Positions 28,848 to 31,409 of a DNA stretch of 64,000 nucleotides are shown here, in pieces; the stretch's first letter is position 1, and every line of letters begins with the position of its first letter. The translations under genes and the position numbers were made by a program. The notes under the pieces were generated by a model that was not told the DNA's origin, made no database searches, and worked only from the letters and a program-made list of their open reading frames with translations. This DNA is from Octopus vulgaris. Its lineage: Eukaryota. Where the stretch lies: assembly GCA_951406725.2 (NCBI GenBank), contig OX597822.1, positions 111,786,001 through 111,850,000 of the forward strand. Reading direction: 5' to 3'.

Positions 28848-29187
28848 TTATAAATCATATAAATATATATAAGTATAATAAGGAATCTGAATATTGTTCG
28901 TATATTTTTTTGTTGTAAGTATGCCATGACAAGATGTGAACTCAGAAAGTAACGGCAGACGAAATACGGCAACGCGTTTCGCCAGGCGTGCTAGCGTTTC
29001 TGCCAGCTCGCCTCCTTCAGCAATATGTATACTGTCAATCTAACAAGAACGTGACAGTAGGGGGTACACCACCGTTATATAGCCCTAGGAGGCATCGAAC
29101 GCCTCCTGCCAGCTTCGACACATTTAACCTGTGTCCTTATATACACATACGAAGGGGAGACAAACACCCCCAACCGCCAGAACTGCA

Positions 29188-29233
29188 TCTAGGGACACCG
29201 TGTTTCAGGATCATTGTCCTTCATCGGCCTAGA
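29188..29233 (-). ncRNA. Type I hammerhead ribozyme (minus-strand copy)
   Basis: Reverse complement of 29714-29759. Confidence 0.78.
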
Positions 29234-29713
29234 GTAGCAGACACCGGTCAGCTGGCGATATCTGTCTCGACTTCGTATCTGTATATATCTATAGTCAGTG
29301 AAGTCTATTCACTGATTATCAAAATAAGAAATATTGAGTTTCTAAATCTCTCGTAGAGAGGTGTACGGTGGTGGAGCGATATAATGGTTGTATACTGTCA
29401 ATCTAACAAGAACGTGACAGTAGGGGGTACACCACCGTTATATAGCCCTAGGAGGCATCGAACGCCTCCTGACAGCTTCGACACATTTTATCCTGTGTCC
29501 TTATATACACATACGAAGGGAAGACAAACACCCCCAACCGCCGGATTGACAGTATACAACCATTATATCGCTCCACCACCGTACACCTCTCTACGAGAGA
29601 TTTAGAAACTCAATATTTCTTATTTTGATAATCAGTGAATAGACTTCACTGACTATAGATATATACAGATACGAAGTCGAGACAGATATCGCCAGCTGAC
29701 CGGTGTCTGCTAC

Positions 29714-29759
29714 TCTAGGCCGATGAAGGACAATGATCCTGAAACACGGTGTCCCTAGA
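29714..29759 (+). ncRNA. Type I hammerhead ribozyme (CCGAUGA core variant)
   Basis: TCTAGG-CCGATGA-AGGA caatga TCCT-GAAAC-ACGGT-GTC-CCTAGA: 6-bp stem I, 4-bp stem II, GUC triplet. Confidence 0.8.
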
Positions 29760-31409
29760 TGCAGTTCTGGCGGTTGGGGGTGTTTGTCTCCCCTTCGTAT
29801 GTGTATATAAGGACACAGGATAAAATGTGTCGAAGCTGTCAGGAGGCGTTCGATGCCTCCTAGGGCTATATAACGGTGGTGTACCCCTACTGTCACGTTC
29901 TTGTTAGATTGACAGTATACAACCATTATATCGCTCCACCACCGTACACCCCTCTACGAGAGATTTAGAAACTCAATATTTCTTATATATATATATATAT
30001 ATATATATATATATATATATATATATATATATATATATAGAGAGAGAGAGAGAGAGAGAGAGAGAGAGAGAGAGAGAGAGAGATATATTAATACTTTACA
30101 AGAATTAAACAGCTTGCTTACACCACTGGTCGTTAGCTTCCAGACAACTGTGTCTTCTAACAATCCCCAGAAAATTGGAGAAAATGTAAATAGGAATTTA
30201 TCAGCAGAAATCAATTTTGAACGAACGGACAATCAACGTTTCTGTTCTATTTCTTGTCATGAAAAATAACATTTCCATGAATAATATTGTCATTTGTTAA
30301 TGATAAGTCGTTGATTAGGGTAACACGTCGAATACATAACAATATTTAATTTTCCTTCTCCACGTATGTTTCCATGCTTATCAGTTCACATTTTCTTTCT
30401 GTGTATACAATAAGCAACAAATATATACGAAGAAGATAAATCCATTAAACTACGACCATCACTTTTACGTGTAGCCTTCATCCTAAATAACAAAATAGCA
30501 TTGCTTGTCTCATTTCTACTGTCAAGTTTTCGTTCCGTCTCTTGTCTCTGTGTCTCCATCTACCGTAATCTTTTTCTACAAACAGATGATTTTACAAGCA
30601 AATGCCATTAATGTCGTACATACTATGTATATTTCGGAAGTAAGGGGGTTTAGTTACATGAGATCGATATAAGTCATTTCTTGGCTGAATAAGCAAACAA
30701 TAACTACGGTATGCTTTACCCACAGCGTCCTTTGTTTACTGTTATACAGCCAAACAGGTTAGGGTCAAAATATATTGGAATAATTTCCTTTCAACGATGT
30801 GTAAGGAATGTAAATCTGACAGCTGCCCGTTGTTATAATGTAGCACAATTAATATGGAAGGACATGAAATTCATTATCGTCAAGTCTCAATTCTCTTATT
30901 GCTTTCCGCAATTTTCCTTGAATTGCATTCTAACGTACTCGACTAGAATGGAAATTCATGGAAGACGAATGGATAAACGGAGCGGTAACAATTTGTGCAC
31001 ATCAAGTCACTGGAATTCAGTGAATCAATTGGCAACTGATTCAGTATTCGTCTTCTACAGCTGAAATGCATCAGTAATTGAATAATCCCTGGTAGCTTAC
31101 TTGTTAGTAATGTTGATAGAAGAGATCAAAAGCATTGAATTAAACAATAAGCCATAGAAATCGATAATCTTAATAATAGTTAATTGAAAAGTTTTAAAAT
31201 GTATCTCATGGATTACAGGTGATTTCGACACGAAAGAAGATCTCGCATAAAACTTGGTATTTTGAGGAATAAATCATATTGTATAATATATGAAATACAA
31301 TTATATGTAAGTATTTTGCCAGTTTAGCCAATAAACACACTCCCACTATATATTTGGTGTTACTTTGCTTCAGCGTTATATATTTTTACGTTAATCTTAA
31401 TCTTATTTC

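Follow-up and report, generated by a model that had tools for sequence, protein, structure and literature searches.

Background

The element considered here finds its closest known counterpart in the animal retrozymes without long terminal repeats (non-LTR retrozymes), such as the 350-390-nucleotide (nt) repeats of mussels, which, as far as their descriptions go (PMC7229834; 10.64898/2026.07.22.740005), are non-coding tandem units, each carrying a single type I hammerhead motif, with a strong fold and coexisting autonomous Penelope-like elements (PLEs), and for which a circular RNA template has been proposed (Cervera and de la Pena 2020, PMC7229834). In this literature the link between retrozymes and PLEs has so far rested on co-occurrence and on the phylogeny of pseudo-LTRs. 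Here we describe a family that bears both on the entry of retrozymes into DNA and on the making of tandem and inverted PLE insertions, represented by a two-armed locus in a 64,000-nt stretch of the Octopus vulgaris genome (contig OX597822.1, positions 111,786,001 to 111,850,000; hereafter the window). On balance, the genomic evidence suggests that this locus is probably a copy of a dispersed non-coding 363-nt hammerhead retrozyme, inserted by a PLE enzyme from a monomer RNA that was likely circular.

For PLEs, an inverted and 5'-truncated second copy, a tail confined to one of the two ends and a bias for (TA)n targets have been described (Craig et al. 2021). In the published account of the biochemistry (Frangieh et al. 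2024, PMC11167929), the PLE protein Poseidon PAc cleaves AT-rich DNA on both strands, each of which it then extends, and cDNA synthesis starts at two internal sites that define the tail. The octopus family shares with endonuclease-bearing (EN+) PLEs the inverted 5'-truncated copy, the one-end tail, the two internal starts downstream of the hammerhead, the AT-rich or (TA)n targets and the more-than-unit copies, and is unlike them in having no open reading frame (ORF), its period of 363 nt, its 56-nt tail and the absence of a homologous autonomous partner from the loci examined. By its non-coding tandem unit, single type I motif per unit, strong fold and coexisting autonomous PLEs it resembles the retrozymes, from which, as these have been described, it is set apart by two fixed 3' ends, inversions, TA targets, target duplications, a variant hammerhead core missed by Rfam and copies that are mostly two-armed and shorter than one unit. 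Its similar size, rod-like fold and predicted dimer-assisted hammerhead are further reminiscent of hammerhead viroids and satellite RNAs, unlike which it has the motif in only one polarity of the monomer and spreads by DNA insertions, showing no sign of RNA-to-RNA replication.

Anatomy of the window locus

Positions in the unit are given relative to c, the predicted cleavage site (29753|29754 at this locus). The head-to-tail unit, the abrupt change of strand and the second run reported in the original prediction are all present (Table 1), the direct repeats at 29026/29389 and 29544/29907 both having a spacing of 363, and the two arms form an inverted repeat of 281 nt with 100% complementarity. 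The predicted hammerhead string is likewise found exactly as quoted in both arms; its occurrence in both orientations is true of the two strands of the locus and arises solely through the inverted copy, both motifs lying in the same polarity of the unit. The unit has a GC content of 44.9% and is non-coding (the longest stretches without a stop span 39 codons on the strand with the hammerhead and 120 codons on the opposite one); no transfer RNA gene was found in it, and it falls within the size range and character of retrozymes (about 150-450 nt head-to-tail, low GC, non-coding). Its predicted fold of -144.7 kcal/mol compares with -96.4 +/- 5.3 kcal/mol in 100 shuffles (z = -9.1).

Table 1. Coordinates of the features discussed, in the window unless a locus is named
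Feature	Position	Strand	Remarks
Left arm	29026..29543	-	518 nt, 1.43 units; 3' end (29026) at c+168, 5' end at ~c+13
Right arm	29544..29983	+	440 nt, 1.21 units; starts (5') at c+154 and stops (3') at T (c+230)
Hammerhead motif, type I	29714..29759	+	predicted cut 29753|29754
Hammerhead motif in inverted arm	29188..29233	-	predicted cut 29194|29193
Tail between S and T	29928..29983	+	56 nt, on one arm only; PLE-type tail
Head-to-head (5'-5') arm junction	29543..29545	.	overlap of at most 2 nt
(TA)28 microsatellite	29984..30039	.	likely insertion target, directly after right arm
Unoccupied copy of LINE-cassette site c+296..311	29686..29701	+	
Unoccupied copy of LINE-cassette site c+296..311	29246..29261	-	
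Sister-family example	L138:937-1490 = G000:C13:22648436-22648989		arms up to 984 nt in this family
LINE or ORF1-only cassettes joined to the unit	L250-L262, L269, L270, L272, L276, L040		15 loci; ORF2 in L277

A dispersed family with two fixed 3' ends

A search of the 2.8-Gb genome (227 contigs) with the unit recovered 2,307 candidates, of which 40 were scored, the full-length matches being mostly 94-100% identical. A 23-mer just upstream of the first fixed end (S, defined below) has 1,852 exact matches and a 30-mer of the hammerhead 226. Two sets of loci were analysed, namely set U, with 72 loci chosen without regard to length (all 96 listed matches of the 23-mer on contig C1 and three of the four listed on C2), and set B, with 51 loci picked by similarity or hammerhead pattern, which is biased to long copies and includes the window locus. 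Most copies are two-armed and shorter than one unit. In set U the outer 3' ends fall predominantly (102 of 115) into two classes about 56 nt apart: S, at c+166..184 and mostly at 174-178 (55 ends), and T, at c+226..238 and mostly at 230-233 (47 ends). Among the 74 two-arm head-to-head insertions of both sets, 16 have an end outside these classes, while every one of the 58 classable insertions (30/30 in set U alone) pairs one S with one T, and no examined copy has both arms ending at the same site. The tail is carried by either arm (ST 28, TS 30). With each arm stopping at a fixed site of its own, the insertions point to two separately primed cDNAs. At the window locus the left arm stops 6-10 nt short of the usual S position (c+174-178), and the end of the right arm would be c+233 if the TAT common to it and the TA run were counted.

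The arms of the window locus lead to the same conclusion: in the left one c+169..230 is missing from the register where it would be needed, and in the right one there is no c+13..153 upstream of the hammerhead, so that each is without segments needed to template the other, neither can be a fold-back copy and two primed cDNAs are required. The single rolling-circle cDNA with a template switch that had been envisaged for this locus is therefore not supported. A genome search with the monomer for tandem arrays and permuted junctions was suggested as a check in the original prediction; a dispersed family with tandem loci was obtained, and its outer 3' ends proved to fall mostly at two fixed sites. 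The circular permutation that had been taken as a sign of a circle is not supported as such, as only the 5' ends vary and the 3' ends are fixed family-wide.

As to the targets, 54 of the 102 S and T ends abut TA-rich DNA. Where the flanks are not TA-rich, 17 of 42 insertions share at least 8 nt across them, as against 0.8 in shuffled pairs, and clean target duplications of 9-14 nt are seen at L018, L045, L077, L078, L096, L199, L200 and L204. The two 5' ends lie at most 20 nt apart in unit position in 14 of 29 insertions of set U (7.0 expected, p = 0.003), which fits a joining of the ends at hairpins. At 5 loci among the first 100 of the 226 listed 30-mer matches there are two or three hammerheads in tandem; these are candidate source loci, and 9 of 180 arms cross two cut sites. 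One locus with two hammerheads is G000:C4:61092382-61093238. At L081/L082 (G000:C1:18.64 Mb) a family fragment lies within a larger, 2.5-kb tandem repeat.

The same anatomy recurs in a sister family with a 360-nt unit (2,990 candidates, 188 exact core matches), which is 62% identical over the alignment and colinear around the whole unit. Its ends lie at c+176 and c+235, and by eye the S and T pairing holds in 9/9 classable insertions. Stems I and II are changed in sequence and still paired, and the core shows the covariation U3-A8. Two details noted in the first family, namely a hairpin-loop string resembling an RNA polymerase III B box and a T4 run that follows T, are by eye not conserved in the sister family.

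Relationship to Penelope-like elements

Taken together, the family carries the PLE insertion signature while being non-autonomous, and insertion of the PLE type is very probable. PLEs, which had been put forward as a competing explanation of the locus, are thus better seen as part of the same explanation. Intact ORFs of 781 aa with a reverse transcriptase (RT) and, at the C terminus, a GIY-YIG domain are present in the genome; none was found in the unit or in its flanks within the window. A PLE-protein match is absent from most family loci, in keeping with the monomer not being the end of a PLE ORF. The PLEs used for comparison are of the Neptune type by domain order and TA targeting, from which the clade name is deduced. 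Some autonomous PLE families bear minimal hammerheads with U4C or U3-A8 cores (L137:4806; L138:2098, minus strand), the same cores as in the two retrozyme families; unlike these minimal versions, the unit has stems I and II of canonical size.

One family arm (L099:1444, G000:C1:50317628) is fused at its T end, with neither TA nor a duplication, to a copy, truncated at its 5' end, of a young PLE family that has 1,379 candidates and whose copies are 99% identical. This fusion, found in 1 of 121 insertions, was considered as a unit-PLE partnership and is best read as a nested insertion, the sequence upstream of the join being unrelated in 14/14 other copies of that PLE.

A LINE cassette inside the unit

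Some copies of the unit are interrupted at c+296..311, just upstream of the hammerhead, by a coding cassette of 1.7-4 kb that encodes CCHC ORF1-like proteins (Pfam matches below the curated cut-off). The cassette protein has a single homologue, which carries the label Octopus bimaculoides. In L277 there is an ORF2 of 1,133 aa with an APE-RT-zinc arrangement, closest to L1 ORF2p. Among 27 examined loci (of 33 distinct matching ones), 14 have the cassette at exactly this site and 13 elsewhere, without the unit; the query was taken from a unit-embedded cassette, so the ranking favours unit-embedded loci. The cassettes at this site show 11-16-nt duplications and junctions of no fewer than six types; the identity of their host units to that of the window is 84-99%, and each has a 3' end of its own with AATAAA. 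Among the insertions of set U, 4 are interrupted at the cassette site as against 25 with intact sites. Thus, the cassette reads as a long interspersed nuclear element (LINE) repeatedly and site-specifically inserted into existing unit copies and not as their parent element.

Tx1-group LINEs are sequence-specific, and the cassette is like them in its CCHC ORF1, its APE-RT-zinc ORF2 near L1 ORF2p, the reuse of one target and the formation of tandem arrays. It is unlike them in having a retrozyme as its target, and other cassette sublineages use other targets. Tandem arrays of the same ORF1 cassette (L263-L268, L273), with a period of ~1.86 kb and at least 8 copies at G000:C4:27.05-27.07 Mb, also hold runs of further ORFs of ~400-550 aa and have no retrozyme unit.

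Alternative routes of insertion

A cassette physically joined to the unit at 15 loci, from an L1-clade element with an intact ORF2, raises the question of whether a LINE of the L1 or Tx1 type mobilises the unit, with the inversions arising by L1-style twin priming. Twin priming leads one to expect a short overlap between inverted arms, and those of the window locus do overlap by 15 nt in unit position; in that process, the second priming site varies with homology to the target, whereas here it is fixed and the tail is found on either arm. Moreover, unit copies have no poly(A) end, and the cassettes inside them have a 3' end and duplications of their own, which together make mobilisation by a LINE quite unlikely. 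The cassette-bearing copies, where an ORF has the unit on its flanks in the manner of a pseudo-LTR, could alternatively be taken for a long form of the family, i.e. a parent PLE of which the short copies are truncated ends, and the direct fusion to a PLE RT ORF in L099 might be enlisted for the same view. This view is largely refuted and we give it even less credence: the tandem period is 363 nt instead of kilobases, the long form consists of an L1-clade cassette sitting in c+296..311 between its duplications and found without the unit at nearly half of the loci examined (13/27), and the observations on the other copies of the L099 PLE and on PLE-protein matches given above speak against it. 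That the window locus is an assembly chimera or a chance fold-back has a negligible probability, given the same anatomy at the 74 two-arm loci with different junctions and flanks and again in the sister family. No contig spanning the junction occurs among the listed public contigs (four runs, three of them presumably of RNA, each touching 30/30 bins), which a chimera would agree with and which was not used as evidence either way. Two haplotypes within the locus were also considered and are ruled out by the odd variant being private to one copy.

Circular or linear template

The distribution of arm ends around the cut site speaks to the form of the RNA that is copied. Of the arms reaching c+30, 35/45 continue through the cleavage site with no excess of stops there, and 111/115 crossings have no gap nearby, which means that the usual template cannot be a cleaved linear monomer. 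An excess of 5' ends at the cut, which such a monomer template would give and which the first 30 loci had hinted at, is absent from set U, where the stop rate is 0.22 at the cleavage site, compared with 0.09 upstream of it and with 0.29 and 0.22 in the two bins downstream. Within one insertion the copies diverge by 1.6-1.8%, as against 7% between insertions, and successive units of one arm agree in 677 of 688 comparisons at subfamily-diagnostic sites (265 of them with the minor allele in both units), leaving 11 discordant where 295 would be expected under independence. Subfamily variants thus fill successive units together, which implies that they pass a one-unit bottleneck.

An uncleaved linear multimer, transcribed from loci of two or three units and copied by the same two-site PLE mechanism, with tandems regrowing by unequal exchange of DNA and the hammerhead weak or acting elsewhere, would account for the read-through equally well, and we regard it as a possible, if less probable, source of the insertions. 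It would be in line with the U4C core and with the longest arms having only ~2.4-2.8 units. To explain the diagnostic variants it would need a monomer bottleneck followed by regrowth in each subfamily; no array longer than two units was found among the 56 fully listed matches of the youngest subfamily, although the assembly may collapse a long master array, and the two families have remained colinear around the whole unit at 62% identity. Within PLE-type insertion, we therefore consider a circular template moderately favoured over a linear one.

Several observations weigh against the reading of a PLE-inserted circular retrozyme, some of them in direct favour of a linear multimer. The arm with three hammerheads in L230 (1110-2120; G000:C4:127188610-127189620) has nested shared mutations that are best explained by duplication of one unit in DNA after insertion, and hence tandems can regrow without a circle; the test of shared rare alleles is too sparse to separate a circle from a linear multimer. 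In the PLE in vitro assay, as reported, uncleaved RNA is the main template and hammerhead cleavage is dispensable (PMC11167929). The tail of the family is longer than the 30-40 nt described for PLEs, strings of the TA type account for some of the 17 flank matches, and the window locus has no clear target-site duplication, its left flank retaining only a few AT bases. No autonomous PLE homologous to the unit was found in PLE families A-D (150 of 6,136 GIY-YIG candidates scored, 46 loci examined, plus 15 loci of the fourth family). As for the ribozyme, the hammerhead fold alone scores +5.8 kcal/mol in the monomer, an Rfam Hammerhead_1 scan of the unit gave no match at the gathering score or at E <= 10, the U4C change is described as lowering hammerhead activity (Perreault et al.), and 8 of 9 predicted retrozymes are reported not to have cleaved in vitro (10.64898/2026.07.22.740005).

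The hammerhead motif

The motif has a 6-bp stem I, a 4-bp stem II, a short stem III and the core CCGAUGA (U4C) in place of the canonical CUGAUGA, all other type I stems and core positions being present. Stem III and its loop are near-palindromic (self-duplex -9.3 kcal/mol), and this combination with an unfavourable monomer fold is as described for animal hammerheads that act as dimers. According to the available account by Perreault et al., U4C still permits viroid infectivity in vivo, and the U3-A8 core of the sister family is natural and active. Only one of the 32 diagnostic subfamily changes falls inside the 46-nt motif, in loop II. With the structure taken from one copy, which biases the test, unpaired positions hold 18/32 diagnostic sites (p = 0.013), and of the 10 transitions that hit paired positions 9 preserve the pair; compensatory double changes within the family show no excess (2 positions against 1.8 expected). 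The covariation of stems and core in the sister family, the scarcity of changes in the motif and the literature on the two cores argue that the hammerhead fold is probably under selection. Masters with a canonical core were sought and rejected, as there are only 11 CUGAUGA matches, with a looser pattern, against 226 for CCGAUGA; CpG decay could account for these 11. Hammerhead families with U4C or U3-A8 cores escape the standard Rfam scan here. The strongest Rfam Hammerhead_1 match of the genome (L208, G000:C5:6546758-6546804; 45.5 bits) is canonical and lies outside both families.

A possible mechanism and its implications

If the template is indeed a circular monomer, a source locus with at least two tandem hammerheads would be transcribed, and slow, probably dimer-assisted cleavage at GUC|C followed by ligation is predicted to yield a 363-nt circle. 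To judge from the (TA)n flanks and the 9-14-nt duplications, the GIY-YIG endonuclease would nick both strands of an AT-rich target ~10 nt apart; one nick would then prime reverse transcription at S (c+174) and the other at T (c+230), the pattern being seen in the copies and the chemistry presumed. Each arm, as observed, would extend upstream for ~30 to 1,000 nt through the cleavage site, and the two cDNA ends would finally be joined head-to-head, often near the same unit position. The window copy itself would be a dead end for the production of circles: having a single hammerhead on each strand, it is unable to release a monomer by itself, and in a transcript across the locus 374 inter-arm base pairs are predicted to bury the hammerhead. 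Accordingly, the circle inferred in the original prediction survives as the likelier template of the family as a whole, whereas the release of circular RNA from this locus is not supported.

On genomic criteria the family files under the animal non-LTR retrozymes, as had been proposed, with cleavage and circles as predictions. Through the structure of its insertions at over 100 loci it ties a retrozyme to the PLE mechanism, to which it adds the rule of one arm per start site; its 363-nt RNA with mapped start sites could serve as a direct test substrate for circular versus linear templates. In the literature surveyed we found no cephalopod retrozyme, CCGAUGA family or S and T rule, although supplements of papers or the Repbase and Dfam libraries may list the family, nor any report of a LINE targeting a retrozyme, as one apparently does here; the words ribozyme and retrozyme are absent from the main text of PMC13282606. 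A tentative and rather doubtful extension is a system of three layers, in which a circular RNA of 363 nt, its hammerhead deliberately slowed, would be the minimal substrate of a PLE dimer obeying the rule of one S and one T on two DNA strands, so that the pseudo-LTRs and tails of PLEs would themselves arise from circles, while a site-specific L1-clade LINE would be specialised on the retrozyme, landing just upstream of the ribozyme and thereby gaining from the host unit RNA ends that the ribozyme defines.

Other features of the window

A second two-arm head-to-head element lies between TA runs at 28062-28590, with 223-nt arms that each have a minimal hammerhead-like motif with a canonical core and a tail of ~70 nt on the left arm only; it has the appearance of a terminal fragment of a PLE that shares this anatomy. 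Two further minimal hammerhead-like motifs with a U4C core, at ~50965 and ~44570 (minus strand), weakly resemble the 3' end of the young PLE family. A PLE RT fragment and putative LINE RT and endonuclease fragments, the LINE label being assigned by eye, are found on the minus strand at 36287-36716, 14127-15331 and 53324-53881. Finally, a repeat resembling a short interspersed nuclear element is present in two copies at 28766-28849 and 28934-29017, with further copies at ~52200 and ~63200, and the two-armed insertion is placed directly after the second of these.
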